From Alphaproteobacteria bacterium (GTDB lineage Bacteria > Pseudomonadota > Alphaproteobacteria > MPNO01), in assembly GCA_965248835.1 (NCBI GenBank), contig CBDFLJ010000002.1, positions 800,001-864,000 of the forward strand: a DNA stretch of 64,000 nt, in the 5' to 3' direction. Positions 16,781 to 55,235 of the stretch are shown one piece after another. The position numbers were made by a program, and so were the translations under genes. Within the stretch, counting starts at the first letter, position 1, and each line of letters begins with the position of its first letter. Below the pieces are notes generated by a model. It was not told where the DNA came from. It was given only the letters and a program-made list of their open reading frames with translations, and made no database searches.

Positions 16781-16830
16781 GCTTCGCTTAACCTGACGTT
16801 CACTCTGGGAAGCATTGGAGGATTCGGCCG

Positions 16831-17565
16831 ATGTCGTGGAGATGTGGTGTGAAGATTTTCGCGGGCGCGCTCGCGCTCTGCCTCGCGGTCCCGGTGGGGG
16901 CGCAGGCGGGGGAGCCGGGCAACGGCTGGTACGTCTCGGGTAATGTCGGCGCGGCATTTGCCGGGGCGTGGGATCACGAGTCCACGGTCGAGACGTTCGT
17001 TCGCCCACCGGACGAATACCGACGCTCGCTGGAGAAGGGTAAGCTCAAGACCGATAACGGTTTTGGGCTGAGCGCGGCTGTGGGCTACGGCCGGAAGAAC
17101 GTCCGGATCGAGGGCGAACTATCCTGGCTGCGGCTTGGCGTTGATTCGCTCGATTTCGACGGCACGGACGATTCGGATGAGGATACCGTCGACGAATGGG
17201 GTGGACGTGCGTCGATCCTCGGCCTGATGGCCAATGGTTACTACGATATCGATACGGGCACCAAGTGGGTTCCGTATATCGGCGGCGGCTTGGGGGCGGC
17301 GCGGTCGAATCTGAAGCTTAGCTTCACGTCGCGGGATCTGGCGACGGAGACCATGGAGACCGGCAGCGACAAAGATGCGGATTGGGTGCTGGCCTATCAA
17401 ATCGGCGCGGGCGTCGCCTACCCGGTGAGTGATTCCGTGATGGTGCAGCTTGGCTACCGGTTCTTCGGCACGAGCAAGGCGAAGTTCAAGTGGGAAGATG
17501 ACTTCATCACGAAGACCAAGTTGCAGTCCCACAAGATCGAGATCGGCGTTCGCTACCGGTTCTAG
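16831..17565 (+). CDS. Outer-membrane beta-barrel protein (opacity/OmpA-like surface antigen)
   Basis: Signal peptide, GWYVSG, RIEGELS, MANGYYD, PYIGGGLG, terminal GVRYRF. Confidence 0.9.
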   Translation: MSWRCGVKIFAGALALCLAVPVGAQAGEPGNGWYVSGNVGAAFAGAWDHESTVETFVRPPDEYRRSLEKGKLKTDNGFGLSAAVGYGRKNVRIEGELSWLRLGVDSLDFDGTDDSDEDTVDEWGGRASILGLMANGYYDIDTGTKWVPYIGGGLGAARSNLKLSFTSRDLATETMETGSDKDADWVLAYQIGAGVAYPVSDSVMVQLGYRFFGTSKAKFKWEDDFITKTKLQSHKIEIGVRYRF

Positions 17566-19360: not shown

Positions 19361-19370
19361 GATGCCTCCC

Positions 19371-20085
19371 TAAAGCCGGCCTTCGCGCCGGTCGAAGAAA
19401 TAGCGGCCGGCCGCGCCGATGACCTCGATCCGGTCGAATTCGCCGGTCTCGCCGGCGAATTCGCAATAGCATGAAAACACGTTCGTCACGATGCGCTCGC
19501 GGTCGATTCAATCGGCGAAAGCGCCGAGGTCGATGTCGCGGCCCGCCGCCTCCCAGCCCATGCCGGCATCGTAGCGCTTGCGGGACTCGGTCTCGACGAA
19601 CAGGAGATAGTCCTTGAGGCCGCGGATCCCCCGCTTGTCGGTTATCGGGCCGTGGCCGGGGACCACGATATCCACATCCCAGCCCAGCATCAGGTCGCAG
19701 GCGTCGATCCAGTTGCCGATCGGTCCGCTCCAGATCACCGGGTGGCCGCCGATGAACACGATGTCGCCCGCGAAGACGACCCTGTCGTCGGGCACATGAA
19801 CGACGACGTCGCCTTTGGTGTGGGCCGGGCCGACCTCGATGAAACGCACTTCCTTCGCGCCCACATGGATGGTCTGTTCGCCGGAGAAGGTCCGACTCGG
19901 CAGTGTCTGGATGAAGCCCTCGGCGGAGAACCTTGTCCACATGACCTCGTTGAAGAACCGGCCGGCGTCGCCGAAATTCCGCCAGTCGAAGCGGATATGC
20001 CCGCGCGGGTCCTTCGGCCCGTCGGCGAATTCCCGCATCTCCTGGAGGCACGCGTCGGACGAGACGATCACCGCGCCGTCTCCGG
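19371..20085 (-). pseudogene. MBL-fold hydrolase/cyclase, 5' deleted with internal stop
   Basis: GPAHTKGD, FAGDI, VVPGHG; TGA at 19508-19510 where Trp is expected, frame continues ERIVTNV. Confidence 0.8.
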
Positions 20086-20515
20086 GTCGGTGTAGGCGCC
20101 GAGGACGGCCATCGGTGTCGGCAGGCTGACCTGGAAGCGGACATGGTCCGGCAGATAGCCCGCTTTCTTCGCGTCCAGGAAATCGAGATAGGACGCCCGC
20201 GCCTCAGCCATCGAGGAATTCGGCGAACTTGGGAAAGCGTATGTCCTGCGGCGCCGCACCGTCGGCCAGCGTGAGCCGGGCGAAGCCGGTCTCGACCGGC
20301 GAAGTCCGGTCCTCGGCGAGCGCAAGGAAGGTGCAGCTGCGCAGCAGCGGGTATTGCCAGCTGATCCACAGCCGGCGTCCGCCCGGCTCGCCGTCGGGGA
20401 CGCGCTCGAGATACGGCCCCAACAACGCCCCCGCCGTCGCCAGCACCTCTTCCGCCGTGTCCAGCCCGACGCTGCCCACCAGGTGCACATGCGTCACATT
20501 CGGTTTGCCGGCCAT
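20086..20515 (-). pseudogene. N-terminal remnant of a MetE-like protein (homolog of 54207-55235)
   Basis: VHLVGSVGL, RVPDGEPGGRRLWISWQ, frameshift, VRFQVSLPTP. Confidence 0.85.
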
Positions 20516-20753: not shown

Positions 20754-20778
20754 CGACACGGAACAGGAGGATCCGAGA

Positions 20779-21411
20779 ATGAAGCGGCATGCAGCATATG
20801 CGGTCTCGGCGGCGGTCGTGCTCGCGTTGGCGACGGCGCTGGTCGGCCAGGCCCATGCCGCCTGCGGCAGCGGCCAGAGAGTAAGCCACCGGGATGCGGA
20901 ATGCCTGCGCGCCAAGTGGGACAACAACACATTGCCGACCCCGAACACCGTCGAAGCCCAGAACCTGTGCTCGGACTACGGGACGGTCGTCGCGAAGATC
21001 GACTCGAAGGGTCGTCCGGATGACACATGGTCTTTGACCGACGGCGAGACGAGAAAAAGCGCACGCCTTTACAGGACCGATTGGGTCTACTGCTGCAGGG
21101 ATCTGAGCGACCTCTGCAACAAGTCGGACATCGTCAACGCCGATTCGTGCCTTGACCAGTTCCTGGCCAGCCCCGCGAGTGAAACATGCAGCAGAACACA
21201 TGCCCGCGTCGCCGGCAGCGATGAGTGCATGATCGTGACGGAGTGCAAGCCCTTCAAGCCCATCGCGGGGGCCCCACCGCCGGAAAGCATAATAACAAGC
21301 ATAACCGCGAGCTGGTCGGACACCGCAAATATCCATAACTGTGGGGGCCTCCTGCGCGTTGGCGCGTGTCTCCGACCCGGAGTTGGCGGCCTGCCGTCGC
21401 TGCCGGACTGA
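20779..21411 (+). CDS. Secreted 12-cysteine protein, paralog 1
   Basis: AGGAGG RBS, signal peptide ending AHA, 12 Cys aligned with 51198-51776. Confidence 0.85.
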   Translation: MKRHAAYAVSAAVVLALATALVGQAHAACGSGQRVSHRDAECLRAKWDNNTLPTPNTVEAQNLCSDYGTVVAKIDSKGRPDDTWSLTDGETRKSARLYRTDWVYCCRDLSDLCNKSDIVNADSCLDQFLASPASETCSRTHARVAGSDECMIVTECKPFKPIAGAPPPESIITSITASWSDTANIHNCGGLLRVGACLRPGVGGLPSLPD

Positions 21412-22900: not shown

Positions 22901-22979
22901 GCGCACGGTCTGCGCCCCGCAGGCTTCCGGCGCGTATCAGCGCTCGAAAAGCGGCGGCATCGGATGCCGGCGGCATGGA
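22901..22979 (+). repeat. Interspersed repeat R, copy 1 (5' part only)
   Basis: GCGCACGGTC...CGTATCAGCGCTCGAAAAGC...GCATCGGAT matches copies 2 and 3. Confidence 0.9.
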
Positions 22980-23068
22980 GCGAGAAGAGCGCAAATGGTA
23001 GAAGCGGCGCCCGAGAGCAACGGTAGGGTCGCGTCCCCGCCGCTGCCACCGCCAGTGAGGGCCGACTG

Positions 23069-24574
<1,506 letters not shown>

Positions 24575-24637
24575 CGAGTTCCGCGTGGCGCACGGTGAGC
24601 TCGACTCGGTTGGCAGGGGAAGCTGCCGGCGGCCAAG

Positions 24638-25113: not shown

Positions 25114-25371
25114 ATGGGCCTGAACATCAAGAATGAGGCGACCTGCCGGCTGGCCGGCGAGCTGGCGCGGCTGACCGGCGAGACCATGACCGGCGCGATC
25201 ACCGTCGCGCTGCGCGAACGGCTGGAGCGTGAGAAGCGCCGGCGCGGCGCGGATGCCTTGGCCCGGGAGCTTCACGCCATCGGAGAGCGTTGCGCCAAGC
25301 TTATGGGACCCGGGCCGTCGGCCGTGGAGCACGGCGACATGCTCTACGACGAGCGTGGCTTGCCCAAGTGA
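25114..25371 (+). CDS. vapB: VapB antitoxin (Rv0623-like)
   Basis: MGLNIKN...LARLTGETMTGAI...LYDERGLPK. Confidence 0.92.
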   Translation: MGLNIKNEATCRLAGELARLTGETMTGAITVALRERLEREKRRRGADALARELHAIGERCAKLMGPGPSAVEHGDMLYDERGLPK

Positions 25372-25381
25372 TCGTCGACAC

Positions 25382-25768
25382 GTGATTATCGATACGTCGG
25401 CCGTCCTGGCCATCCTGCTCGGCGAGCCCGACGCGGGGCGTTATGAAGACGCGATAGCGGCGGCTTGGCCCCGCCGCATGTCGGCGGTCGGGCTGCTCGA
25501 GGCGGCGATGGTTGTCGAAAGCCGGGGCGGCGCCGCGGCGGGACATGAGCTCGATGTGCTGTTGGAGAAGGCGGCGGTCGAACTGGTGCCGGTCACCTCC
25601 GAACAGGCCATCGCCGCGCGCCGCGCCTGGCGGCGTTTCGGCAAGGGCAATCATCCGGCGGGGTTGAACTTCGGCGACTGCTTCGCCTATGCGCTCGCCG
25701 ACACGATGGGCGAGCCGCTGCTGTTCAAGGGCGGGGACTTCACTCGCACCGATATCGCGGCGGCCTGA
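25382..25768 (+). CDS. vapC: VapC PIN toxin
   Basis: IIDTSAVLAIL, RFGKGNHPAGLNFGDCFAYALA, LLFKGGDF. Confidence 0.92.
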   Translation: MIIDTSAVLAILLGEPDAGRYEDAIAAAWPRRMSAVGLLEAAMVVESRGGAAAGHELDVLLEKAAVELVPVTSEQAIAARRAWRRFGKGNHPAGLNFGDCFAYALADTMGEPLLFKGGDFTRTDIAAA

Positions 25769-25985
25769 GCTGGCGCACGGTCTTGCGCCCCGAAGGCTTC
25801 CGGTGCGTATCAGCGCTCGAAAAGCAGCGGCATCGGATATCGGCGGCATCGACAACGGCGCCGACCGGCAGCAAGCCGGCGGGCGGCGCATCGCGCATCC
25901 GTTCGCGCGTCACCAGAATGTCCGCTCGCCGCCGGGAGCCGGGATGCAGGGTAAGGCCGAAGGGCGGCGGGCGCGGGTCGGCGTT
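25767..25985 (+). repeat. Interspersed repeat R, copy 3
   Basis: Collinear with copy 2; begins in the vapC stop codon. Confidence 0.92.
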
Positions 25986-26010
25986 GCCTGGGGCGTTGTT
26001 TTGCATTAGT

Positions 26011-26029
26011 GTGATGCGATTGACATCAC
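26011..26029. promoter_or_regulatory. Palindromic operator upstream of the RHH antitoxin
   Basis: GTGATG-N7-CATCAC. Confidence 0.55.
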
Positions 26030-26046
26030 CAGACATCGGCATTGCC

Positions 26047-26268
26047 ATGAGCCAGATCACCGCGCGCTTGCCCGATTCGGTCGTCGCCGCGCTGGATGCG
26101 GCCGCGCGCCGGCTGAAGCGCAGCCGGGCGGAGATCGTCCGCCAGGCGGTCGAGCGTTACCTCGAAGATTTCGACGATCTGTCGGTGGCGGTCGAGCGGC
26201 TGCGCGATCCGAACGATCCGGTGCTGGACTGGGATCAGGTCAGGCGTGAGCTTCTCGATACGGATTAA
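26047..26268 (+). CDS. CopG/ribbon-helix-helix antitoxin
   Basis: MSQITARLPD...SRAEIVRQAVERYLED...LDWDQVRREL. Confidence 0.88.
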   Translation: MSQITARLPDSVVAALDAAARRLKRSRAEIVRQAVERYLEDFDDLSVAVERLRDPNDPVLDWDQVRRELLDTD

Positions 26269-27997: not shown

Positions 27998-28097
27998 GTG
28001 CTTTATCTGGTCGACGCCAACGTCCTGATTCGCGCGCACGAAGACTATTACCCGCTCGATTGCGTCCCACAGTTCTGGGAGTGGCTGAAGCAGCAAG
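27998..28097 (+). pseudogene. DUF4411-type PIN protein, N-terminal piece
   Basis: MLYLVDANVLIRAHEDYYPLDCVPQFWEWL, then abrupt switch to transposase sequence. Confidence 0.85.
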
Positions 28098-28469
28098 CCC
28101 TGGCGCGAAAGTCTACACGGATGAGCACAGCGGCTACCAAGGGCTCCCGAACCATGAGACGGTCAAGCATAGCGTGGGGGAGTACGTGGACGGCATGGCT
28201 CACACCAACGGCATTACCGGCCGCCGGCCCCGGAATCCTTTTGGAGCATGCTCAAGCGCGGGTACAGAGGTACGTACCACCGCATGAGTGCCAAGCACCT
28301 TCAGCGGTACGTCAACGAGTTTGCAGGGCGGTACAATGTCCGTTCAATGGACACCCTGGACCAGATGGCGGACGTAGCGCGCGGGTTTGTCGGAAAGCGG
28401 CTGCGTTACGCTGACCTGATAGCCGCTCGGGACGTCGTCGTGCCGCAGGCTGGCAGCGACGTATTCTGA
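28098..28469 (+). mobile_element. IS1595-family transposase 3' remnant
   Basis: VYTDE...GEYVDGMAHTNGI / ESFWSMLKRGYRGTYHRMSAKHLQRYVNEFAGR; small insertion shifts the frame. Confidence 0.88.
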
Positions 28470-28507
28470 TGCGAGCCGATGGATTAGAGAATAATATACG
28501 GCCCAAC

Positions 28508-28535
28508 TTGACACACAAGCAGCGTTGGGTATAAT
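28508..28535 (+). promoter_or_regulatory. Sigma70 promoter, copy 1
   Basis: TTGACA-N16-TATAAT. Confidence 0.8.
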
Positions 28536-28801
28536 GACCTTACATCAAAACAGGTTGTGAATGGTATGGGCTATTCCCCACACTTTCAAGGATAAGGCCC
28601 TGTTATCTCAAAGAGATTTCGATTCGTCCCGAAACATCGGCTATCACTCCTGGACCAGATGGCGGACGTAGCGCGCGGGTTTGTCGGAAAGCGGCTGCGT
28701 TACGCTGACCTGATAGCCGTTCGGGGCGTCGTCGTGCCGCAGGCTGGCAGCGACGTATTCTGATGCGAGCCGATGGATTAGAGAATAATATACGGCCCAA
28801 C

Positions 28802-28829
28802 TTGACACACAAGCAGCGTTGGGTATAAT
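28802..28829 (+). promoter_or_regulatory. Sigma70 promoter, copy 2, upstream of fic
   Basis: TTGACA-N16-TATAAT. Confidence 0.85.
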
Positions 28830-28854
28830 GACCTTACATCAAAACAGGTTGTGA

Positions 28855-30024
28855 ATGGTATGGGCTATTCCCCACACTCTCAAGGATAAGGCCGTGTTAT
28901 CTCAAAGAGATTTCGATTCGTCCCGAAACATCGGCTATCACTATGGGGCGTTTCCCCCGAAGGATCTCGACTACAGCGGCATTGTTACGCCGCTAACCGA
29001 GGCTGCAGCGGCAGTCGCCCGTTATGAGCAGATGCTCAAGGGCATACACAATACCCGCCTTTTCCTGACGCCCCTCGAACGCCAGGAGGCAATATCGTCT
29101 TCACGTATGGAGGGTACGATCTCCACGCTTGATGAACTGCTAATGTACGAGGCCAATCTTGAGGAAGATGAAACCCATCCCTCTGCCCGGCAGGACACCC
29201 TTGAAGTACACGCTTATCGACTAGCAGTGAGCCGTGCCGAACGCATGATAAATGACGGTGCTGAGTTATCTCCAGACCTACTACGTGCGTGCCACAAAGC
29301 ACTTCTCGGATTTACGCGCGGACGTGAGAAGTCTCCAGGAAACTTCAAAACGGATCAGAACTACTTAGTGGATATGCTTAGTCGGAAGATTTTATTCACT
29401 CCAATTTCTCCTGCTCATTTGGAATACGGGCTTGATGATTTGTTCTCATTTATTAGAGACAGCGATGTGCACCCACTGATTAAGACCGCGATAGCTCATG
29501 TAGAATTCGAATCTCTGCACCCCTTTAACGATGGAAATGGACGAATTGGTCGTATTTTTATAACGTTGATGCTTTGGAAGTTAGGACAAATTTCGCACCC
29601 GTATTTCTATATCAGTGGGTATTTGGAAAAAAGGAAAAACGACTATATAGACTGTATGCGTGCTGTATCTGCCAAACAAGACTGGACGTCATGGTGTATT
29701 TTCTTTCTTGAAGCAGTGCGCGGTCAAGCGGAAATGAACCTTATAAAGTCGGAAGAGATAAGAGAGTTGTACGAAGATATGAAAGAAATATTTCGAGTCA
29801 ATTTGTCGTCTCAGTGGTCCATTAACGCCCTAGATTTCATTTTTGCGAACCCTGTGTTTCGTAACAACGGGTTCACCAGCCGTAGTGGCATTCCCAAGCA
29901 AACCGCCAACCGCTTTACCCGGGTTCTTCTGGAAGCTGAACTACTTACTACCATCCGACCGCCGTCTGGCCGCCGTCCCGGTCTCTACGCTTTTGAACCG
30001 CTTCTCCAGATTGTTCGCGTGTAA
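28855..30024 (+). CDS. Fic family protein
   Basis: HPFNDGNGRIGR; SSRMEGT inhibitory-helix-like motif; visibly AT-richer than flanks; start uncertain. Confidence 0.93.
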   Translation: MVWAIPHTLKDKAVLSQRDFDSSRNIGYHYGAFPPKDLDYSGIVTPLTEAAAAVARYEQMLKGIHNTRLFLTPLERQEAISSSRMEGTISTLDELLMYEANLEEDETHPSARQDTLEVHAYRLAVSRAERMINDGAELSPDLLRACHKALLGFTRGREKSPGNFKTDQNYLVDMLSRKILFTPISPAHLEYGLDDLFSFIRDSDVHPLIKTAIAHVEFESLHPFNDGNGRIGRIFITLMLWKLGQISHPYFYISGYLEKRKNDYIDCMRAVSAKQDWTSWCIFFLEAVRGQAEMNLIKSEEIRELYEDMKEIFRVNLSSQWSINALDFIFANPVFRNNGFTSRSGIPKQTANRFTRVLLEAELLTTIRPPSGRRPGLYAFEPLLQIVRV

Positions 30025-30046
30025 TTTTTTTCTGTCGTTGGTTCAC

Positions 30047-30358
30047 ATGAGCCGGGAAATCAAGCAGGCGCTGATCCTCGAAGAAGAAGCGGACACCGAT
30101 GTGGTCGATCGGGTGCTGAGGGAGGGCTACGGCGAAAACCTGACCGACAGCGAACTGGAACAGATCGGGCAGGATGCATTCCTGATCGCCTATGCGCTCG
30201 CGGCAGAGGACCGGGTGGTGGTGACCAAGGAGACCCGCAGGCCGCGCGCGCAGCGGGCCAACCGGAAAATCCCTGATGTGTGCGATACCTCGGCAGTGCA
30301 CCCGATGTCAGACTTCGAACTCTACCGGACATTGAGATTTACGACAGCGGACCGGTGA
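30047..30358 (+). pseudogene. DUF4411-type PIN protein, C-terminal piece
   Basis: GQDAFLIAYA...VVVTKE...NRKIPDVC. Confidence 0.85.
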
Positions 30359-31213: not shown

Positions 31214-31648
31214 GTGTATCTGGTGGACACGAATGTGCTGTCGGAGGGGAGTCCCGGCCGACCCCGACGATTTTCTGCTCTGATCGATTGGATGGACGCG
31301 CATTCGGACGAAGTCTTTCTGTCGGCGGTCACCGTCGCCGAGATCTGCGACGGGATCGCCAAGGCGCAAAGGACGGGGCGGCGTTCCAAGGCCGGCGGCC
31401 TCGCGGAATGGCTCGAAGTCGTGTTGCATCTCTACGCTGCGCGCGTGCTGCCGTTCGACGTTCCCGCGGCGCGTATGGCGGGGGCGCTCATGGACCAGGC
31501 GCGCGCGGCCGGTCGATCGCCCGGCTTCGCCGATGTCGCGATCGCGGCGACGGCCGGCAGCCGGGGCCTCACGGTTCTGACGCGCAATCTGCGTCACTTC
31601 GCGCCTCTGGGCGTCGACGCCATCGACCCCTTCGAGGCGCTGCCATGA
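31214..31648 (+). CDS. vapC: VapC PIN toxin
   Basis: YLVDTNVLSE, TVAEI, DVAIAATA, TRNLRHF. Confidence 0.92.
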   Translation: MYLVDTNVLSEGSPGRPRRFSALIDWMDAHSDEVFLSAVTVAEICDGIAKAQRTGRRSKAGGLAEWLEVVLHLYAARVLPFDVPAARMAGALMDQARAAGRSPGFADVAIAATAGSRGLTVLTRNLRHFAPLGVDAIDPFEALP

Positions 31649-36406: not shown

Positions 36407-36714
36407 TTCAAGCTCTGCACATCGGCGGCGGGCCGATACGATCGCCGCCGGCGACAGGCGCAGGCCGGACCGTGCGAGCGCGTCGAGCGCGGATTTGACG
36501 CCTTCGGCGATGCCGGGATCGCAATCCTCGAAGTACCACTCGCACAGCCCGACATGGAAGTCGGCGAGATGGGCGGCCGCCAGCCGGCGTGTCCAGGCGA
36601 CGGCGTCCTCCTCGACGCCCGGGTCGATGGCGGCGAAGCCGATCGTCATGTCGGCGACCGAGCGCGCGAGCACGCCCGCCGTGTCGAGCGCCGGGCTCAA
36701 CGGCACGATGCCCT
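36399..36714 (-). repeat. Internally deleted partial copy of the amidase gene
   Basis: Matches 47481-47526 and 48020-48289; 493 bp removed at a shared GATCG. Confidence 0.95.
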
Positions 36715-37504
36715 GATCAATCCGCTGTTCGACGCGTGGGACGGAGAGCCGCTGACCGGCCCGCGCACCGTTGTCACCACGGCGGCGCCGACACCCGCCC
36801 CGCTCCGGCGCAAGCTCGCCGAGATGTTCCCGCAAGCCGATATCCTGGCAGCGGCCGGGCTGAGCGAAAGCCTCAACATGGCGACCCAGAGCCCGGGCGA
36901 GCTGCTCAGCCACCCGGACGGCATCGGCGCGCCGCATATCGATACCCGCGTGCTGATCCTGGACGATGACGACCGCGTCGTCCCGCGGGGACAGCCCGGC
37001 CACATCGCGATGCGCAATTTCAACACCGCGCTCGGCTATCACCGCAACCCGGAAGCCGCAGCGCTCACCCGGCGGCCCCGGCGGGATGACCCGGAGGGGC
37101 TGCACTGGTGTTTCACCGGCGATGTCGGCGTCATGGACGAAGACGGCCGTATCACCATCGTCGACCGGTCGAAGGACATTATCCTGACCGGCGGCGAATC
37201 CGTCCCCTCGGTGGAGGTGGAGACGGTCTATGCCGATCATCCGGGTATTGTCGATTGTGCCGCCGTCGGGGTCGAGGACGAACGCTGGGGCGAAGCAATC
37301 CTGCTGGTTGCGGTGCCGAAAGACCCGGAGGTCCCGGAACGCGACCTCGCGGCGGACCTGTTCCGTTTCGGACGCGACCGGCTGGCCGGTTTCAAGGTGC
37401 CGAAGCGCGTGGCCTTCATCGACGCCCTGCCGCGCAGCCATTTTGGCAAGGTGCTGAAACGGGATTTGCGGGAATACAGGTTCGAAACGGTGTTCGACCG
37501 ATAG
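36715..37504 (+). pseudogene. C-terminal fragment of an acyl-CoA synthetase (AMP-binding)
   Basis: GLSES, FTGDVG, IVDRSKDIILTGGE, LPRSHFGKVLK; A3 motif region absent. Confidence 0.85.
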
Positions 37505-41930: not shown

Positions 41931-43613
41931 CCCGGATATCCCAGATAGGAGCCGATTTCGCTGCCTACCGAAGCATGATAGTCCAGCCATTGCAGCAGGT
42001 TAGCCATGGAGGAGCGGGGATTTGGCGGTGAACGCGACGGGTGAAGCAGAATCCGTCCCGCTGCGGCTCCAGTTTGACCGCTCGGTGAAGCTGGCGTTCT
42101 GCGGCTCTTCTATCAGTTCCGACGGTGGTCTGCTGCTTCACCGCGAACTCGATGATGCCCTTGGCCTCACCGGCATGGCGGCCGATCTCCTCGCCGATCC
42201 GCGCACCGGGAAGAACGGCCGTCACCATCTAGCGGCACTCCTGCGGCAATCGATCTTCTCTCGCCTGGCGGGATATGAAGACGTCAACGACGCGGATCGT
42301 CTTTGCCGCGATCCGGTGATGCGTCAGCTCGTTGGCGGACGGGCGGTGAAGCACGGTGCGGCCTCGGCGAGCGCCATGGGCCGGTTTGAGACGGAGATAT
42401 TGACCCAGCCTGATAACCTTACTGCTCTCGCCGATCTGCCCGGCCGCTGGATTGATGCGATCCATGACAGGCGACCACCGAAGAGCATCACGCTCGACAT
42501 GGACAGTTCGGAAAGCCCGGTGCACGGTAGTCAGGAGGGCTCCGCCTGGAACGGTCACTTCCAGTCGAAGTGCCTGCATCCGCTGTTCGTGTTCAACCAG
42601 TTCGGTGATCTGGAGCGGTGCTCCTTGCGTCCCGGCAACGTCCACAGCGCCGCCGGCTGGGAAGATGTGCTGCGGCCGGTTCTGGCGCGCTACTCCGCGT
42701 CTGCCCGGCAATCGATCACGCGGCGGCGGTTCCGGGCTGATGCTGCCTTTGCCATCCCGGCGTTGTTCGACCTGCTGGAAGCCGAGGGCTGGGACTACGC
42801 CATCCGAATCAAGGGCAATGCCAAGCTCCACGAGCGCATCGATTGGCTGACGAAGCGCCGGCCTGGCCGGCCGCCGAACCATGTCGTGCGCCTCTACACC
42901 AGCTTCCATTACCGGGCGAAGAGTTGGTCGAAGCCGCGCCGGGTGGTGGCCAAGGTGGAGTTCCATCCAGGCGAGCTGTTTCCGACCGTCGGCTTCATCG
43001 TCACCAACCGAGGCCTGCCCAACGAGCGGGTGCTGGCCTTCTACAACGACCGCGGCACCGCCGAGCAGCACATCAAGGAGGGCAAGTATGCGCTGAAGTG
43101 GACGCGTCTCTCCTGTATGCGCTTCGCGGCAAACGCCGTGCGGCTCCAATTGCATGCGCTCGCCTACAACCTCGCCAACTTCCCGCGGACAGCGGCGACG
43201 TCTGAACTGATCGAGCGCTGGTCCCTCACATCCTTGCGCGAACGGCTGATCAAGACTGGCACGCGGCTCGTGCGCCACGCCCGCTATGCGGTGTTCCAGA
43301 TGGCGGAGGCCGCGCTGCCCCGCTCTGTCTTCGCAGGCATACTCGGCCTCATCAACGGACTGCGGGGGCCGCCAGCCGTGACGGTGCCAGCATGATCAAC
43401 GGTCATCTTCGAGCCGCGATGCGCACGGCCGGAGGCGCGAGAGGTGCGACCTGCGGGAGCCAAAATGGCTTTCCTCGCTGCGCCGAACCGCTACCGGCAC
43501 GCTTTGCAGGCTCGACGTCGGCCGAACGAGGCGAAGCACAGGCATTCGTTGGCTTGATCAGCGACCCCACAAATGGCATCGTCAGTGGGAGTGTTCCATA
43601 TGGGGAATGCCGG
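41931..43613 (+). mobile_element. IS1380-family element
   Basis: Imperfect 16-bp terminal inverted repeats (11/16) around a full-length transposase. Confidence 0.8.
42022..43395 (+). CDS. IS1380-family transposase
   Basis: SSDGGLLL, GYEDVNDA, LDMDSS, RADAAF, YNDRGTAEQHIKEGK. Confidence 0.95.
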   Translation: MAVNATGEAESVPLRLQFDRSVKLAFCGSSISSDGGLLLHRELDDALGLTGMAADLLADPRTGKNGRHHLAALLRQSIFSRLAGYEDVNDADRLCRDPVMRQLVGGRAVKHGAASASAMGRFETEILTQPDNLTALADLPGRWIDAIHDRRPPKSITLDMDSSESPVHGSQEGSAWNGHFQSKCLHPLFVFNQFGDLERCSLRPGNVHSAAGWEDVLRPVLARYSASARQSITRRRFRADAAFAIPALFDLLEAEGWDYAIRIKGNAKLHERIDWLTKRRPGRPPNHVVRLYTSFHYRAKSWSKPRRVVAKVEFHPGELFPTVGFIVTNRGLPNERVLAFYNDRGTAEQHIKEGKYALKWTRLSCMRFAANAVRLQLHALAYNLANFPRTAATSELIERWSLTSLRERLIKTGTRLVRHARYAVFQMAEAALPRSVFAGILGLINGLRGPPAVTVPA

Positions 43614-47489: not shown

Positions 47490-48905
47490 TCAAGCTCTGC
47501 ACATCGGCGGCGGGCCGATGCGATCGCGCGCCCGGCCGAGCACGCGCTCGCAGGCGAGCGCGAGGGCGAGTGCGGTTTCTTCGCCGCCGCCGCGCGCGAC
47601 GATGTGCAGCCCGACCGGCATTCCGGCGCTGTCGAGGGCCACCGGCAGCGTGATTGCGCACATGCCGAGCAGGCTCGCGGTGTTGGTGTTGCGCACCAGA
47701 AGCAGGTTCTGCCGGAGATGTTCTTCGGGGCCGGTGATCTCCGCCAAATCGGGCGGGGTCAGCGGCAGCGTCGGCCCGACCAGCGCGTGCAGCCCGTCGA
47801 AGGCGCGATGCGCCTCGCGCGACAGCGCGCCGAGGCGGTGCACGCGCTGCAGATGCTCCGACGCCGGCAAGGCTTCCGTCTGCTCGATACGGATCGCCAC
47901 CGCCGGATCCAGGTCGGCGCGGTAGGCCGCCATCTCGTCGTTGAGGAACCGGGTGAAGTCGCCGACATGCAGCCCGCCCTGGCGAAACAGCGCGGTCGCG
48001 GGCTCGAATTGGGGGATCGTCGCCGGCGACAGGCGCAGGCCGGACCGCGCGAGCGCGTCGAGCGCGGATTTGACGCCTTCGGCGATGCCGGGATCGCAAT
48101 CCTCGAAGTACCACTCGCACAGCCCGACATGGAAGTCGGCGAGATCGGCGGCCGCCAGCCGGCGCGTCCAGGCGACGGCGTCCTCCTCGACGCCCGGGTC
48201 GATGGCGGCGAAGCCGATCGTCATGTCGGCGGCCGAGCGCGCGAGCACGCCCGCCGTGTCGAGCGCCGGGCTCAACGGCACGATGCCCTCGGTCGACCAG
48301 CGGCCCGCCGTCGGACGGATCCCCGCGGTGCCGGTCATCGAGGCCGGGATGCGCACCGATCCGGCGGTGTCGGAGCCGATCGCCAGCACGGCCGATCCCT
48401 CCCACAGGCTGACCCCGGCGCCCGAGCTCGAGCCGCCGGGCGAGCGGTGGGCGGCCGCGTCCCACGGGTTGCGCGGCGCGCCCCAATGGGGGTTGGCGCC
48501 GAGCCCGCCATAGGCGAACTGGACGGTGTGGGTCTTGCCGCTGATCACCGCGAGCTGGCGGCGGAGCGCGCGGACGACCGGCCCTTCGCGGCGCCATTCG
48601 CCCGGCAGCTCGCGCGGGCAGCCGGCAAAAGTAGGATAACCCGCAACCCCGAACAGGTCCTTGATCGACACCGGGATGCCTTGCAACGGGCCGAGATCGT
48701 TGTCGGCGGCGCGCGCCGCGTCGGCGAGCGCGGCCTCCGCGCGCACGCGGTCGGGATCGAAGGTCTTGTATGCGTGGAGCGCTTCGCCGCGGGCCGCATG
48801 GTTGGCGATCGCCCAGTCGGCGATAGCGGCCGCACTCAGCCGGCCATCGCGCAACGCGGCCACGATCGTATCGAGTGCGGCGGTCTCAATGTCCGGATCG
48901 GCCAT
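47490..48905 (-). CDS. Amidase signature family enzyme
   Basis: SIKDLF, PGGSSSG, IGSDTAGSVRIPAS. Confidence 0.95.
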   Translation of the reverse strand: MADPDIETAALDTIVAALRDGRLSAAAIADWAIANHAARGEALHAYKTFDPDRVRAEAALADAARAADNDLGPLQGIPVSIKDLFGVAGYPTFAGCPRELPGEWRREGPVVRALRRQLAVISGKTHTVQFAYGGLGANPHWGAPRNPWDAAAHRSPGGSSSGAGVSLWEGSAVLAIGSDTAGSVRIPASMTGTAGIRPTAGRWSTEGIVPLSPALDTAGVLARSAADMTIGFAAIDPGVEEDAVAWTRRLAAADLADFHVGLCEWYFEDCDPGIAEGVKSALDALARSGLRLSPATIPQFEPATALFRQGGLHVGDFTRFLNDEMAAYRADLDPAVAIRIEQTEALPASEHLQRVHRLGALSREAHRAFDGLHALVGPTLPLTPPDLAEITGPEEHLRQNLLLVRNTNTASLLGMCAITLPVALDSAGMPVGLHIVARGGGEETALALALACERVLGRARDRIGPPPMCRA

Positions 48906-49134: not shown

Positions 49135-50238
49135 ATGGCCAGACGCGAAAAACCGCCGTTCCGCGCCGATCACGTCGGCAGCCTGCTGCGCCCTGCCGCG
49201 CTCAAGGCGGCGCGCGAAAAACATGCCGGGGGCGAGCTCGACGCGGCCGGGCTCGAGGCCGTCGAGGACCGCGAGATCGCGCGCGTCATAAGGAAGCAGG
49301 AGGAAATCGGCATCCAGGCCGTGACCGACGGCGAGTTCCGGCGCTCGTGGTGGCACCTCGACTTCCTGTGGGGGCTCGACGGCATCGAGCGGCACGTCAT
49401 GGAAGCCGGCGTCGCCTTCGCCGGAACCACCACGCGCGCCGAGGGGGTGCGGGTCGCGGCGAAAATCGGTTTCTCCGGCCATCCGATGCTGGAGCATTTC
49501 GCGTTCGTCGATGCACGGTCCGACCGGCTGGCGAAAATGACCATCCCGGCGCCGTCGGCGGTCTACGGCCGGCCCGTGAAGGTGCCGATCGATGCGGCCG
49601 CATATAAGGAGCTCGACGCGTTTTTCGACGACCTCGGCCAGGCCTACCGCAAGGCCGTGCGCGCCTTCGCCGACGCCGGCTGCCGCTACCTGCAGCTCGA
49701 CGAGGTGTTCATCGCCATGTTGTGCGACGAGAACTACCGCCGCCGGATGATCGAACGCGGCGACGATCCGGAGAGGCTCGCCGATCTCTACGCCGATCTC
49801 ATCAACACGGCCGTATCGGACATCCCCGCCGACATGACCGTCACCATGCATCTGTGCCGCGGCAACTACAAATCGACCTTCATGGGCACCGGCGGGTACG
49901 AAGCGGTGCAGGAGGTGCTGTTCGGCAAGACCGCCGTCCACGGATACTTCATGGAGTACGACAGCGAACGCGCCGGCGGCTTCGAGCCGCTGCGCCTGCT
50001 GCCGAAGGACAAGACCGTCGTGCTCGGCCTGGTGACCACCAAGCGCGGCGCGCTCGAAACCAGGGACGAGATCATGCGGCGCATCGACGAGGCGGCGAAG
50101 TTCGCCGACATCGACCAGCTCTGCCTGTCCGGCCAGTGCGGCTTCGCCTCGAGCGAGGAAGGCAACACGTTGAGCGAGGACGAGCAGTGGGCCAAGCTCG
50201 CCCGCATCGTCGAAGTCGCCGACGAGGTCTGGTCCTGA
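49135..50238 (+). CDS. Cobalamin-independent methionine synthase II family protein (single barrel)
   Basis: RADHVGSLLRP, TDGEFRR, HLCRGN, EYD, QCGFAS. Confidence 0.92.
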   Translation: MARREKPPFRADHVGSLLRPAALKAAREKHAGGELDAAGLEAVEDREIARVIRKQEEIGIQAVTDGEFRRSWWHLDFLWGLDGIERHVMEAGVAFAGTTTRAEGVRVAAKIGFSGHPMLEHFAFVDARSDRLAKMTIPAPSAVYGRPVKVPIDAAAYKELDAFFDDLGQAYRKAVRAFADAGCRYLQLDEVFIAMLCDENYRRRMIERGDDPERLADLYADLINTAVSDIPADMTVTMHLCRGNYKSTFMGTGGYEAVQEVLFGKTAVHGYFMEYDSERAGGFEPLRLLPKDKTVVLGLVTTKRGALETRDEIMRRIDEAAKFADIDQLCLSGQCGFASSEEGNTLSEDEQWAKLARIVEVADEVWS

Positions 50239-50318
50239 CAGGTTTTCCCCGGCATTTCCCATGTGACGCGAGGACGGTTGCCGGTCTTGCGCACCGGGGC
50301 ACCCACCTGCCGCGCCCG
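50042..50318 (+). repeat. 277-bp direct repeat, left copy (gene 3' end plus downstream DNA)
   Basis: Matches 52132-52408 without gaps, about 17 mismatches. Confidence 0.95.
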
Positions 50319-50386
50319 ATCCAGGGGCCGCCTTCAGCGACAAGCCAAAAGTGAGAAATTTTGGGTCGCCAAAAATGGGAGATTTA

Positions 50387-50966
50387 CTAGTCCCACGGAC
50401 ACTTTCCAACTCTCAGTTTCTTATTACAGTTGTGGAGTCTTGCGGCATCGAGCCAGCTTACGGTCGCTGTTGACTGGTGCTGACCATACGGCCCATTTAT
50501 GCCCCTACAAGTTGCGGAGATCGCGCACTCAGCGTTGCTAGTGGCGGTGGCGGTTTCATCCTTGCACGAATCGTCCGCGGAGCTGGCCTCGAACTGCTCA
50601 AGGCACGAATCGTCGTCGACGACGTCCGCCTCGTTGCAGAGATCGCCCAGATCTTTGCAGCAGTAAACCCCGTTGACCTGGGTGGCGGACTGTTCTGCCG
50701 TGTTGCCGGTGGTCAAATACACTATCGTATCCGCCAGTATCTCTTTGTCGATCTTTGCGACGACCTCCCCGTGGTCCGGGCACAGGTTTTGGATTTCGAC
50801 AGTTTGTCCGCTTGCAACCGTGCTTATCTTGACGCGTAGGCAATCCGCGCTCTGGTGATTGATTCTCTGGCCATGCCGCGCAGCCGGCATGGGCCTGACC
50901 GGCAAGCAGCGCCGCCAATGCGAGCGCGAACACGGCCGAGAGCGCGTGGGCTTTATTCCAGGTCAT
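50387..50966 (-). pseudogene. Secreted 12-cysteine protein, paralog 2 (+1 frameshift after the signal peptide)
   Basis: 580 bp versus 579 bp for paralog 3; extra base near 50870-50880. Confidence 0.85.
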
Positions 50967-51197
50967 TTTCGGACCTTTCCGTTGCGCGCCGATGCGCCGT
51001 TCGTGGGGCCTCATTGCCCTGATGGTGCGTATCGCGCTGCGCTCGAATGTCGGCTTTACGCCGCCTGATTGCGCCCTTCTCCCCGGTCGGCCTGACGTGA
51101 TCGGCACATAACGTCCCTGCCGCGACCGATCCAGGGGGCCGCCTTCAGCGACAAGCCAAAAGTGAGAAATTTTGGGTCGCCAAAAATGGGAGATTTA

Positions 51198-51776
51198 CTA
51201 GTCCCACGGACACTTTCCAACTCTCAGTTTCTTATTACAGTTGTGGAGTCTTGCGGCATCGAGCCAGCTTACGGTCGCTGTTGACTGGTCCTGACTATAC
51301 GACCCATGCATGTCCCTACAAGTTGCGGAGATCGCGCACTCACCGTTGCTAGTGGCGGTGGTGATTTCATCCTTGCACGAATCGGCCGCGGTGCTGCCCT
51401 CGAACTGGTCAAGGCACGAATCGTCGTGGACGATGTCCGACACGTTGCAGAGATCGCCCAGAAGTGTGCAGCAGTAAACCCCGTTGATCTGGGTGGCGGA
51501 GCGTTCTACCGTGCTGCCGTTGGTCAAATACACTGCCAGATTCACCTGTATCTTTCTGTCGATCCTTGCGACGACCCACCCGAGGTCCGGGCACAGGTTT
51601 TGGACTTCGACAGTTTGTCCGCTTGCAGCCGTGCTTATCTGGACGCGTAGGCAATCCGCGCTCTGGTGATTGATTTTCTGGCTGCCGCTGCAGCCGGCAT
51701 GGGCCTGACCGGCAAGCAGCGCCGCCAATGCGAGCGCGAACACGGCCGAGAGCGCGTGGGCTTTATTCCAGGTCAT
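51198..51776 (-). CDS. Secreted 12-cysteine protein, paralog 3
   Basis: Signal peptide ending AHA, 12 Cys, AAAGG RBS. Confidence 0.88.
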   Translation of the reverse strand: MTWNKAHALSAVFALALAALLAGQAHAGCSGSQKINHQSADCLRVQISTAASGQTVEVQNLCPDLGWVVARIDRKIQVNLAVYLTNGSTVERSATQINGVYCCTLLGDLCNVSDIVHDDSCLDQFEGSTAADSCKDEITTATSNGECAISATCRDMHGSYSQDQSTATVSWLDAARLHNCNKKLRVGKCPWD

Positions 51777-52131
51777 TTTCGGACCTTTCCGTTGCGCGCC
51801 GGGGCATCATTGTGCCACCGGCAGGACAGCGTACTCGTCACCTGGCGCCAGAATTATCCGGCAGCGTTGCTGCGCCGTCAATGTCAATTCGTGCCTTGAA
51901 CGGTTCAAGGGCAGCGACGCGGGTGGTTCATGCCGCGATCCAGCCGCCGGCGTCGATGCCATCTATCGGTGCAAGGTCACCGCTTCGTGTGAAAACGGGA
52001 ATGGCGGCCGTCGAAAGGCGAGCGCGACCGTGGCTGGCGCGACGTCAACGATCTCCGCAACTGTGCGGGCCATCTGGAAGTCGGAGCGTGCGACCCTCAG
52101 CCGGATCCAAAGTAGCATTGTCGATAACGAG

Positions 52132-52408
52132 AGCGCGGCGCGCTCGAAACCAGGGACGAGATCATGCGGCGCGTCGATGAGGCGGCGAAGTTCGCCGGCA
52201 TCGACCAGCTCTGCCTGTCCGGCCAGTGCGGCTTCGCCTCGAGCGAGAAAGGCAACACCTCGAGCGAGGACGAGCAGTGGGCCAAGCTCGCCCGCATCGT
52301 CGAAGTGGCCGACGAGGTCTGGTCCTAACACGTTTTCCTCGGCGTTTCCCAGGTGACACGAGGACGGTTGCCCGTCTCCCGCACCGGGGCACCGACCTGC
52401 CGCGCCCG
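52132..52408 (+). repeat. 277-bp direct repeat, right copy
   Basis: Copy of 50042-50318. Confidence 0.95.
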
Positions 52409-52645: not shown

Positions 52646-53589
52646 AGAGCCCTTCCGGAAAGTTCTTGAATCGGAAGAATCGTTTGTGATTCTGTGCTGG
52701 GCATCCGGTTTACAGGAGGAAGCCCGATGTGGACTGCGGAACACCGCCGCGCGGCGGAGCGTCGCGGACTTCGCTATCCGAGTGATCTGACCGACGCCGA
52801 GTGGGCGCTGATCGCGCCAATGATCCCGCCTGCCAAGCGCGGCGGGCGCAAGCGCTCAGTCGACGTGCGCGAGGTTCTGAACGGCATCTTCACCGTGCTG
52901 TCCACGGGCTGCCAGTGGAATGCACTGCCCAAGGATCTGCCGCCGAAGTCGACGGTGTACGACTATTTCGATCTATGGGAGTGGGATGGCACGCTGGAGC
53001 GGATCCATCATGAACTCTACGTCGCGGTGCGCGATGAGGAAGGACGCGAAGCCAGCCCGTCGGCCGCGGTCATCGACAGCCAGAGCGCCAAGGCGGCGCA
53101 AAAAGGGGGGCGTCGATCGACGATCAAGGCTTCGATGCGGGCAAGAAGGTCACCGGTCGCAAGCGGCACATCATGGTCGACACGCTCGGCCTGATGCTGG
53201 GCATCGTGGTGCATTCCGGCGACGTTCAGGATCGCGACGGTGCCCACGAGCTCTTGCGCCGCACCCGGCGACGGTTCCCATTCATCGAGGTGATCTACGC
53301 CGACGGCGGCTATCAGGGACCGAAGATGGCCGCGACTGTCGCCAAGACCGGGGGGTGGCGGCTCGAGATCGTCAAGCGCAACGACGTGCCCCGCTTCGAG
53401 GTGCTGCCAAAGCGTTGGATTGTCGAACGCACCTTCGCCTGGATCAGCCGCAACAGGCGCCTCGCTCGCGACTTCGAACGTCACGTTCGATCCGTCGTCG
53501 CCTTCATCCGACTCGCCATGATCCGCATCATGCTGCGCAGACTCGCCGCAACCCACTCACCATAGATTCAAACTTTCCGGATCGGCTCT
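52646..53589 (+). mobile_element. Complete IS5-family element
   Basis: 19-bp inverted repeats (AGAGCCCTTCCGGAAAGTT, 2 mismatches), TA on both flanks. Confidence 0.92.
52727..53565 (+). CDS. IS5-family transposase, two frames joined by a -1 frameshift
   Basis: YPSDLTDAEW, IDSQS, slippery AAAAAGGGGGG near 53100-53110, YADGGY, RWIVERTFAW. Confidence 0.88.
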
Positions 53590-54206: not shown

Positions 54207-55235
54207 ATGATCCCGACCCAAGTCCATTTCGTCGGATCGATCGGGCTCGATAGCGTAAGGGAAGTCTTCCGGACGTTGGGGCCGCTGCTCGGCAAGCGCC
54301 TGCGCCGCATCCCGGACGGCGAGCCGGGCGGGCGGCGCGCGTGGATCGGATGGCAGCAGGTCGTCCTGCGCCTCAACCCGTTCCTCGCGTTCGATCCGGA
54401 CAGCAGCGCGGCGACCATCCAGACGCCGCTGATGGTCCTCGCCGAGGGCGTGAAGCCGAGCGCGGTGAAATTCGGCGAGCTCGGCTACGCCCACGAGGCG
54501 CGCGCCTCCTATCAACTGTTCCGCGAAGCGCGCAAGGCCGGCGACATTCCCGAGGGCGTGCGGTTCCAGGTTTCGCTGCCGACGCCTTCCGCCGTCATCT
54601 CCACGTTCGTCGCATCGCGCGATTTTCGCGTCGTCGAAAAGCCCTACGAAAAAGCGATGCTGCGGGAGGTCGCGGAGATCTGCCGGGCGGTCCCGCACAG
54701 GGATCTCTGCATTCAATGGGACGTATGCCAGGAGATGCTGACCTGGGACGGCCAGATCGATACCTTCAAACTCCCCTATGACGACCAGGGCGCGGCAATC
54801 CTCGCGCGGCTGAGGCGGTTATGCCAATCCGTCCCGAGCGGCGTCGAGCTCGGCCTCCACCTGTGCTACGGCGATTTCAACGGCCGGCACATCGTCGAGC
54901 CGCGGGATATGACCAGGCTGGTCGCGCTCGCGAATGCCGTCTCGAAACGGGTGCCGCGGCTGATCGACTATGTTCACATGCCGGTGCCGATCGCGCGTCA
55001 TGACGACGCCTATTTCCGGCCGTTGGGCGATCTCGCGCTCGACCCGAGGACGGAGCTCTATCTCGGCCTGGTCCACGCCGACGGCGCCCGGAGCGTCAAG
55101 GCGCGCATTGCCGCGGCGGCCAGATACGCGCCCTCTTTCGGTATCGCGACCGAGTGCGGGATCGCGCGCGCACGCAAGCCCGGCGTCGTCAGGAAACTCA
55201 TCAAGGCGCATGCCGAGGTATCGCAAGACGCATAG
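54207..55235 (+). CDS. MetE/UROD-like zinc barrel protein
   Basis: HFVGSI, IPDGEPG, HLCYGD, ATECG. Confidence 0.85.
   Translation: MIPTQVHFVGSIGLDSVREVFRTLGPLLGKRLRRIPDGEPGGRRAWIGWQQVVLRLNPFLAFDPDSSAATIQTPLMVLAEGVKPSAVKFGELGYAHEARASYQLFREARKAGDIPEGVRFQVSLPTPSAVISTFVASRDFRVVEKPYEKAMLREVAEICRAVPHRDLCIQWDVCQEMLTWDGQIDTFKLPYDDQGAAILARLRRLCQSVPSGVELGLHLCYGDFNGRHIVEPRDMTRLVALANAVSKRVPRLIDYVHMPVPIARHDDAYFRPLGDLALDPRTELYLGLVHADGARSVKARIAAAARYAPSFGIATECGIARARKPGVVRKLIKAHAEVSQDA

Follow-up and report, generated by a model that had tools for sequence, protein, structure and literature searches.

Introduction

Diversifying selection on secreted cysteine-rich proteins is a classic mark of evolutionary arms races, known from animal venoms and from the effectors of fungi and oomycetes. 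Here we describe a tandem pair of bacterial genes of this kind, copy 2 and copy 3, each coding at the DNA level for a signal peptide and a mature part with 12 cysteines, which lie on a 64,000-nucleotide (nt) stretch of contig CBDFLJ010000002.1 (GCA_965248835.1) from an alphaproteobacterium; this whole stretch is called the window, and coordinates are positions in it. The two copies share identical ends, and in the core between them every differing codon changes the encoded residue. A search of open-access papers and preprints found no paper on this bacterial family, and the open-access literature yielded no comparably clean bacterial case of diversifying secreted cysteine-rich proteins.

The described systems that come closest share some of its traits and lack others. 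The Hcp proteins of Helicobacter pylori consist of Sel1-like alpha-helical repeats. These paralogs form a secreted, cysteine-rich and host-associated bacterial family with reported adaptive evolution (excerpts of PMC3608669), unlike which the present proteins have a predicted fold of beta-sandwich plus alpha/beta domain, with a match to Sel1 or any other Pfam model in 0 of 76 members. Conotoxin-type and other invertebrate cysteine-rich families, exemplified by the mussel MgCRP-I peptides (as presented in parts of PMC4558851), have in common with our pair a conserved signal, a hypervariable mature part, a fixed cysteine frame, duplicated genes and a ratio of nonsynonymous to synonymous divergence (dN/dS, omega) above 1. 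However, the genes described here are bacterial, their mature protein of ~165 residues has two domains, and there is no pro-region; the likeness is one of analogy only, with no relation in sequence or fold and no toxic or antimicrobial activity known for the bacterial family. The small secreted cysteine-rich effectors of fungi and oomycetes, as portrayed in excerpts of the literature on them, are likewise secreted, disulfide-rich, lineage-specific, tandemly expanded, positively selected, devoid of Pfam domains and host-associated, but here the organism is a prokaryote with Sec export and the family extends across bacterial phyla. Like the pair, targets of diversity-generating retroelements (DGR) vary within a limited region of a secreted or surface protein and change mainly at codon positions 1 and 2; they differ from it in that the pair comes with no reverse transcriptase in the scanned open reading frames (ORFs), no template repeat in the window and no adenine specificity.

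Symbionts of sponges provide a further point of comparison. 'Aphanocapsa feldmannii' 277cV, an intracellular, facultative sponge symbiont according to portions of PMC6506613, carries multiple copies of our family, and this is the ground shared with the eukaryotic-like and adhesion proteins treated in that source; the 12-cysteine module lies outside the eukaryotic-like repeat classes described for sponge symbionts, and the words 'cysteine', 'secreted', 'signal peptide' and 'Calx' have 0 occurrences in the main text of PMC6506613. Calx-beta domains are a building block of the polymorphic sponge aggregation factors (excerpts of PMC5400394), and the long forms of our family carry Calx-beta as well.

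Two copies with identical ends and a diverged core

The original prediction had placed a tandem pair of secreted 12-cysteine proteins at 50387 to 51776, and both limits agree with the genes, which are read on the minus strand: copy 2 ends with its stop codon at 50387, and copy 3 starts with its ATG at 51776. The elements of the pair are:

51198 to 51776, minus strand: copy 3, an intact 579-nt ORF of 192 codons with a Sec-type signal peptide and a 12-cysteine mature part.
50387 to 50966, minus strand: copy 2, 580 nt, with signal-peptide codons identical to those of copy 3, a +1 shift and then an open mature frame of 160 codons.
50880 to 50991, equal to 51690 to 51801, minus strand: 5' identical block, 112 nt at 100% identity, made up of 26 nt upstream of the gene (with a GGAAAGG ribosome-binding-like motif) and the signal-peptide codons.
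50873 to 50879, minus strand: frame-breaking site of copy 2, 7 bases where two codons are expected, between the first cysteine codon and the GQR codons.
50324 to 50386, minus strand: 3' flank of copy 2, common to 51135 to 51197 on the 3' side of copy 3, with a hairpin of unremarkable stability (fold z-score -1.77).

Copy 2 follows copy 3 on the same strand after 231 nt, and the units are tied together by two repeats, the 112-nt block (100%) and a 300-nt block (95%), at spacings of 810 and 811 nt. At their 3' ends, the last 29 codons, the stop codon and ~63 nt downstream are identical. The predicted identity of the signal-peptide codons and of the last 29 codons is borne out; upstream of its ATG, copy 2 has no more than 26 nt in common with copy 3. 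Where copy 2 has 7 bases, copy 3 and all homologs have two codons (by reading of the sequence, unit alignment and the one-base step in repeat spacing), and this extra base puts the signal of copy 2 out of frame with its mature part, i.e., start codon, signal peptide and first cysteine stand in one frame and the remaining 160 codons in another. As assembled, copy 2 encodes no secreted 12-cysteine protein, and the earlier claim that all 12 cysteines are kept in both copies holds for the DNA but not for a protein made from copy 2.

Every differing codon changes the residue

Codons were compared over the 160 aligned positions from Q(K/R)INH onward, in a reading frame that is fixed by the signal peptide and the cysteine pattern. 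Thirty-eight of the 160 codons differ between copy 2 and copy 3 and the number of synonymous-only differences is 0, which confirms over the whole alignment what had been counted by eye (about 38 codons, all replacing the residue); the variable patches named at that time are also present. The 43 base differences are distributed over codon positions 1, 2 and 3 as 18, 22 and 3, and they are restricted to codons 34-163, so that the core carries 43 differences in 390 nt and the identical flanks 0 in 285 nt (p=3e-11). Nei-Gojobori counting gives 0.5 synonymous differences over 105.5 sites and 42.5 nonsynonymous differences over 374.5 sites (dS 0.005, dN 0.12; Fisher p=2.3e-5). In a Goldman-Yang-type pairwise maximum-likelihood (ML) fit, omega runs to its upper boundary, with a likelihood-ratio statistic of 22.7 against omega=1 (p=1.9e-6) and a profile-likelihood 95% lower bound of about 7. 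The divergence is non-neutral, as had been proposed, and relaxed constraint cannot explain the excess of replacements.

Base-specific mutation bias was ruled out by a simulation in which the 43 observed changes were re-dealt over the core with their exact base-to-base spectrum (50,000 runs): 8.0 synonymous-only codons were expected, with a probability of 1.2e-4 of seeing none, and third-position changes had a mean of 13.8, with three or fewer in 0 of 50,000 runs. Another reading frame was also considered as the real gene and was rejected: none on either strand makes the differences mostly synonymous, and 22 of the 43 hit a base that is central to its codon in the sense frame as well as in the antisense frame that overlaps it exactly.

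The pattern recurs in a close relative but not across the family

The nearest paralog for which DNA was at hand (L001, on a contig of an alphaproteobacterial metagenome-assembled genome, MAG) served as outgroup for the 38 sites. Eleven of them are derived in copy 3, nine in copy 2, and 18 are three-state, often with the same third base in all three codons. Both lineages have changed, at the same sites repeatedly, and the split of 11 versus 9 means that one-sided decay of copy 2 is not the cause. Relative to L001, copy 3 has an omega of 2.0 (p=0.017), and copy 2 likewise has 2.0 (p=0.019).

A second tandem pair, at locus L004 of this same related MAG (1197-1568 and 1955-2326, plus strand), consists of signal peptide and C-domain only, and both of its copies are intact. 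Their upstream flanks show 3 differences in about 205 nt, while the coding parts have 42 nonsynonymous versus 2 synonymous-only codons of 136, and the ML estimate of omega over 121 codons is 4.3 (p=0.0025). Independently of copies 2 and 3, this pair thus shows the pattern seen between them. A class II aminoacyl-tRNA synthetase gene, compared between the genome of the window and this MAG, was used as control for the values against L001; its omega is 0.11 (15 synonymous and 10 nonsynonymous differences of 502 codons). The synthetase gene (22976-24633 in the window, 18755-20413 at L004 on CBDFKL010000006.1) has 97.8-98.3% DNA identity between the two, and the sequence to either side of it is unrelated; its near-identity shows that the organism of the window is a close relative of that MAG, with heavily rearranged neighbourhoods. 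The L004 locus also holds genes for MORN-repeat proteins and an IS1595-type transposase.

Among 30 pairs from the whole family (>=55% identity and >=60 aligned codons), omega exceeds 1 in three only, i.e., copy 2/copy 3, the L004 pair and copy 3/L001. The diversifying signal is lineage-specific: a dN/dS at or below 1 is what most of the wider family has, and it is not what is found in this lineage.

Close homologs P0001-P0006 were compared as protein sequences. New residue states in them are enriched at the same 38 sites (in P0002, 8/38 versus 9/122 elsewhere), and states like those of copy 3 and copy 2 occur as a mosaic. P0001 is copy 3-like at the first 25 sites and P0004 copy 2-like at the first 26, both being mixed in the C-domain; such mosaics are compatible with segmental transfer without proving it. 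The protein sequence of P0004 includes an in-frame signal peptide, so an intact protein of the copy 2 type exists elsewhere.

Promoter-like site of copy 3 and state of copy 2

Upstream of copy 3 stands one further element:

51777 to 51881, minus strand: promoter-like site and ~80-nt leader of copy 3, with TTGACG, 17 nt and GATAAT at 51881-51853, sigma-70-like in 10 of 12 matches.

In an upstream alignment, L001, L004 and L010 keep ~125 nt of the sequence ahead of copy 3. Paralog 1, which is intact and lies elsewhere in the window, keeps part of it. A promoter scan of the 231-nt spacer upstream of copy 2 found no promoter-like site. The 3' flank was considered as a terminator and rejected, as a scan gave no terminator-like site and the z-score of the hairpin is only -1.77; because no such site was found, read-through from copy 3 into copy 2 could take place, with a product that would still be out of frame. 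For the leader RNA, no convincing conserved fold was obtained (consensus -8.7 kcal/mol, covariation term +0.2). Copy 2 is either a gene that was disabled not long ago, a copy kept silent, or a gene whose frame was broken by an assembly error of one base.

A predicted two-domain module with twelve cysteines

The N-terminus of copy 3 has a positive start, a hydrophobic core and an AHA motif, and was read by eye as a signal of residues 1-27. We take the AHA motif to be a signal peptidase I site (AxA rule), and presumably the signal is not a lipobox, position -3 being a histidine. Cysteines of the mature part stand at positions 29, 42, 62, 102, 103, 110, 121, 134, 147, 153, 180 and 189. Across 76 aligned members of the family, six of these columns are invariant and the other six are at least 90% conserved, and in the protein alignment of the close homologs all 12 positions are kept, as expected from the original prediction. 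Across P0001-P0011, the signal peptides share 75-100% identity with that of copy 3 and the mature parts 31-94%. These features suggest that the family proteins are exported and form disulfides.

An AlphaFold2 model of copy 3, built on the 76-member alignment, reached a mean predicted local distance difference test (pLDDT) of 88.9 and a predicted template modelling score (pTM) of 0.74. It predicts an N-terminal beta-sandwich (about 43-103) and a C-terminal alpha/beta domain (about 118-186). A Foldseek search with this model gave 0 matches at E<=1e-3 in PDB or in BFVD, a library of viral structures. Weak matches, all at E>=0.008 and non-significant, were FN3/monobody-like, cyanovirin-N-like and to SIX8, the last of these, a Fusarium effector, having a probability of 0.89, template modelling (TM) scores of 0.24/0.41 and E=0.06. 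The best hit of a sequence profile search of PDB had E=0.47, and the Atlas look-alike search returned no usable match. The family had been called uncharacterised, and rightly so, as hidden Markov model (HMM) searches of Pfam, NCBIfam, PADLOC and PHROGs gave no model for it: the best Pfam match had E=0.1 (0/76 aligned members match at E<=0.01), the best NCBIfam match E=0.056, and PADLOC and PHROGs had none. A "new fold" would mean here only that the predicted structure has no significant match in the libraries searched.

The 38 variable sites fall into both domains: the N-domain has 24 of them among its 84 positions, the variable part of the C-domain has 14 among 47, and the last 29 residues have 0. 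They are commoner in predicted coil (20/49) than in predicted strand or helix (18/82, p=0.029), and 26 of the 38 occupy positions that are polar family-wide. The five at hydrophobic positions are V/I, R/K, I/V, I/V and T/A. Taken together, these proxies of secondary structure and hydrophobicity lean weakly to loops and polar positions.

A family spread over several phyla

A word-indexed search recovered 11 relatives, and an exhaustive profile search recovered 422 representative proteins at E<=1e-3, 207 at <=1e-10 and 55 at <=1e-30. Architectures vary: the C-domain occurs alone in the L004 pair and as 4-6 tandem repeats in P0109, P0112 and P0116, and a Calx-beta domain follows directly after the module in 11 of 19 longer relatives scanned, as well as in ORFs of L005 and L012. 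In the model of a long form, P0037 (pLDDT 66), the module is followed by Calx-beta, then by a long helix and a disordered stretch, and finally by ~19 long beta strands. Compared with TonB-dependent-receptor and LptD barrels, the strand region has a Foldseek probability of 1.0 at a TM of only about 0.25-0.3, and in the model it resembles 22-strand-type receptor barrels, not solved autotransporters. The autotransporter beta-domain (PF03797) was found by Pfam in 0/7 long forms, and an NCBIfam match of the TIGR01414 autotransporter type in one of six, P0037, at 15.5 bits, below the cut-off of 16. To our knowledge, cysteine-rich passengers are unusual for classical autotransporters. Copies 2 and 3 themselves are without any barrel. 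From the signal peptide, the 12 cysteines, the confident model and the fusions to Calx-beta and barrel, we conclude that the module probably acts outside the cytoplasm and may sometimes be tethered to the outer membrane.

A scan of genome contigs for the family gave 18 loci in nine MAGs. Eight of the loci belong to 'Aphanocapsa feldmannii' 277cV and the others to four Alphaproteobacteria, two Candidatus Binatia and one Gammaproteobacterium, i.e., the phyla Cyanobacteriota, Pseudomonadota (alpha- and gammaproteobacteria) and Binatota. The window and these 18 loci hold 43 HMM matches, only 24 of them near full length and many split or partial; the densest example described here, L008 (a Candidatus Binatia MAG), has eight matches in 20 kilobases (kb), several of them split. 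In L008 and L015, which both belong to Candidatus Binatia MAGs, inserted family genes interrupt in several places an otherwise syntenic housekeeping block (xanthine-dehydrogenase-type subunits, glyoxalase, amine oxidase, URO-D and Y-family polymerase genes). The tree contains strongly supported cross-phylum sister pairs, alphaproteobacterial L010 with cyanobacterial L009 (100/99) and L005 with L012 (99/96), which suggests horizontal transfer of the family, with mis-binning as a caveat.

The pair had also been thought to form part of a system, a view that we do not retain: no partner gene recurs beside family members in the window or in the seven loci whose neighbours were examined. Searching the 18 loci by tblastn with five neighbours from the window gave one weak amidase match (L017), and Pfam scans of 39 + 30 neighbouring ORFs in the seven loci returned unrelated housekeeping or mobile genes.

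The surroundings of the pair

Other elements of the window that are related to the pair or flank it are:

20776 to 21411, plus strand: paralog 1, intact, 211 amino acids (aa), 43-44% identical to copy 3.
51868 to 52035, plus strand: relic of a family member, inverted and truncated, from the CC motif to the middle of the C-domain, overlapping the copy 3 promoter region on the opposite strand.
52132 to 52408, plus strand: duplicated segment, 94% identical to 50042-50318 (3' end of the neighbouring Meth_synt_2-type gene and sequence downstream of it; tblastn 92% over 65 aa).
52694 to 53565, plus strand: IS4/IS5-family transposase flanking the locus, two overlapping ORFs matching Pfam DUF4096, DDE_Tnp_1 and DDE_Tnp_1_2.

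The relic is recognised by tblastn (33% over 55 aa, E=2e-5) and by the family HMM (positions 116-167, E=3.7e-9). The 94% duplicate of the end of the Meth_synt_2-type gene makes the locus a patchwork of segmental duplications. A 100-aa fragment at 36440-36739 (minus strand), 89% identical to part of the intact amidase gene at 47490-48905 (minus strand), likewise points to duplicated segments and decaying genes in this genome. At 2.4 kb from copy 3 lies a gene for a 342-aa protein with no Pfam match (54207-55235, plus strand), and a frameshifted fragment of its paralog (20056-20494, minus strand, 49-52% identity) is found directly upstream of paralog 1; in the 18 other loci, no pairing of this gene type with family members was seen.

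Elsewhere, the window is rich in mobile and toxin-antitoxin-type genes. Two PIN-domain genes (one beside a ribbon-helix-helix gene), two partial phage-integrase-family ORFs and a DDE transposase are located at 25229-26268, 31214-31648, 11440-11880, 16301-17008 and 42022-43395. A low-GC stretch at 28001-30000 (guanine-cytosine content 0.515 versus about 0.66) holds an ORF of 389 aa (28855-30024, plus strand) with the motif HPFNDGNGRIGR, which on inspection resembles a Fic-type motif. This low-GC insertion appears to split a DUF4411/PIN-like gene (27998-28414 and 29843-30358), and a transposase-like fragment lies alongside (28060-28469). At the start of the window (57-3530, plus strand), a 1157-aa protein combines three fibronectin type III stretches with an autotransporter beta-domain (Pfam); eukaryotic-like surface proteins such as this one have been reported from animal symbionts.

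Probable selection on a proposed binding module, and its alternatives

We consider lineage-specific diversifying selection on an exported binding module after a recent duplication, and not a multi-gene system, to be the probable explanation, though with considerable room for doubt. The pair belongs to an undescribed protein family of uncultured bacteria, predicted to be Sec-exported and to have six disulfides and two domains, with copy 3 as the intact, promoter-bearing gene and copy 2 as a downstream duplicate that keeps the ribosome-binding site, the start and the signal codons. Strong positive (diversifying) selection acting on the mature protein would have driven the central 130 codons apart, and the ends may have stayed identical by recent duplication, by gene conversion homogenising them, or by both. 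In theory, gene conversion homogenises neutral flanks of duplicates while selection preserves their diverged cores. We infer that the module serves in binding and sits at the surface, possibly as a recognition face outside the cytoplasm (in the envelope or secreted) with an ever-changing partner, for which we would favour an animal host or a phage; in such a course, copies of the family would be born, diversify and decay. Of the original prediction of a diversifying secreted recognition or effector protein, diversification is well founded (lower bound of omega ~7, 4.3 in the L004 replicate), and recognition or an effector role is what may plausibly lie behind it.

Several observations weigh against this explanation. 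For ordinary selection, so large an omega at a dS close to 0 is extreme, a pure arms race sits oddly with the many conservative replacements (K/R, I/V, D/E), and the identical flanks might stem from gene conversion, making dS an unreliable clock. In the wider family, 27 of 30 pairs (from cyanobacterial, Binatia and other genomes) have omega values of 0.00-0.56, and a tandem pair of the sponge symbiont has 0.44 (ML) or 0.28 (counting). Variable sites are not significantly depleted at hydrophobic positions (5/38 versus 33/122, p=0.086), and family-wide column entropy is no different at variable sites (p=0.22). Moreover, copy 2, frameshifted and without the family promoter and leader, cannot make protein as assembled, and the comparison is one of a gene with a probably dead or silent copy; yet decay alone would lead to an omega near 1.

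Such a silent copy recalls pilE/pilS and vlsE, cassette systems that swap a variable core into an expression site by gene conversion. Cassette-type variation, with copy 3 as expression site, copy 2 and, at an earlier time, the inverted relic as silent donors and the identical blocks as homology arms, would fit a copy 3 endowed with the family promoter and leader next to a copy 2 that is out of frame and shares only 26 nt upstream, a variable core bracketed by blocks without a single difference (112 nt and about 170 nt), an inverted partial relic adjoining the pair, and homologs that are mosaics of both states, which in P0001 and P0004 seem to switch close to where the domains meet. We nevertheless regard it as unlikely, given that there is one candidate donor plus the relic where known systems carry many cassettes, that copy 2 retains a ribosome-binding site, an ATG and a whole signal peptide, unlike typical silent cassettes, and that the replicate pair at L004 comprises two intact copies, each with its own upstream region. 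Conversion alone, moreover, creates no nonsynonymous excess, and selection would still be needed.

An interbacterial weapon, i.e., secreted disulfide-rich bacteriocins or toxins diversifying against the receptors or immunity of competitors, is a quite unlikely use of the module in our estimate. The proteins would suit it in being secreted, disulfide-stabilised, multi-copy, horizontally spread and under diversifying selection, and animal toxins and antimicrobial peptides are known to pair a conserved signal with a hypervariable mature part, as excerpts of the literature on these relate. However, no immunity-like or export gene recurrently adjoins family members in the window and seven loci, PADLOC and PHROGs gave no match, and the Calx-beta and membrane-barrel fusions of the long forms point to a tethered, adhesive role over that of a diffusible toxin.

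Targeted hypermutation, by a DGR or another codon-aware mutator writing into the mature-coding region, seems very improbable, even if it would account for changes confined to a bounded core, for the 40 of 43 changes taken by codon positions 1 and 2 and for the 18 sites that are three-state once L001 is included. No reverse transcriptase domain was detected by Pfam in the 59 window ORFs scanned or in 30 ORFs of L004 and L010, the window has no third copy like a template repeat, 16 of the 43 differences are without adenine in either copy, and the core retains 87 unmutated adenines common to both copies, of which 70 stand at codon positions 1 or 2. The variable region covers both domains and spares the C-terminal 29 codons, and an untargeted mutator would leave synonymous changes, 8 expected versus 0 seen. 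A retroelement of the DGR type was rejected on the lack of a reverse transcriptase in the scanned ORFs and of adenine bias.

We place just as little trust in an assembly artefact, in which two strain alleles would have been joined as a false tandem or the extra base would be a sequencing error. The window and all relatives come from metagenome-type assemblies, perfectly identical ends favour mis-joins, and a single-base indel is a typical long-read error; on the other hand, the copies stand in different contexts, with ~143 nt of unique spacer, other upstream sequence and other neighbours, P0002 and P0006, whose contigs in another assembly have an equal length of 36,170 nt, may share one contig, an analogous tandem pair exists in L004, and even a false tandem would leave the nonsynonymous excess between the alleles intact. 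Relaxed constraint, with copy 2 as a decaying pseudogene and neutral differences, is suggested by its frameshift, its lack of a promoter and the many fragments and split copies in the family, but has hardly any probability left, as it predicts an omega near 1 and ~8 synonymous-only codons where 0 are seen (p=1.9e-6), and as changes fell on both lineages (11 versus 9), the 160-codon frame of copy 2 is still open and P0004, intact, agrees with copy 2 at each of the first 26 variable sites out of 38; neutral decay of copy 2 was rejected by these codon statistics.

Implications

We rate the module as a new protein family and a fold candidate, evolving in a mode that is familiar in eukaryotes and unusual in bacteria. 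A bolder picture, to which we would grant a low but appreciable chance, is that unrelated animal symbionts share, by horizontal transfer, a disulfide-locked two-domain scaffold not seen before that is shown or secreted to the host, that at least one alphaproteobacterial lineage diversifies it in the manner of conotoxins, and that tandem copies, some of them silent, swap their cores there via the invariant blocks of signal peptide and C-terminus. If true, a scaffold with core exchange would be a minimal bacterial variation system for a host-recognition ligand. The omega of the pair is among the highest measurable and is repeated at a second locus. If the changing partner is a host molecule, the module would provide a testable handle on the mutual recognition of animal hosts and symbionts, and if it is a phage, a new envelope target would have been marked; under either partner, the module merits a family definition and a structure.

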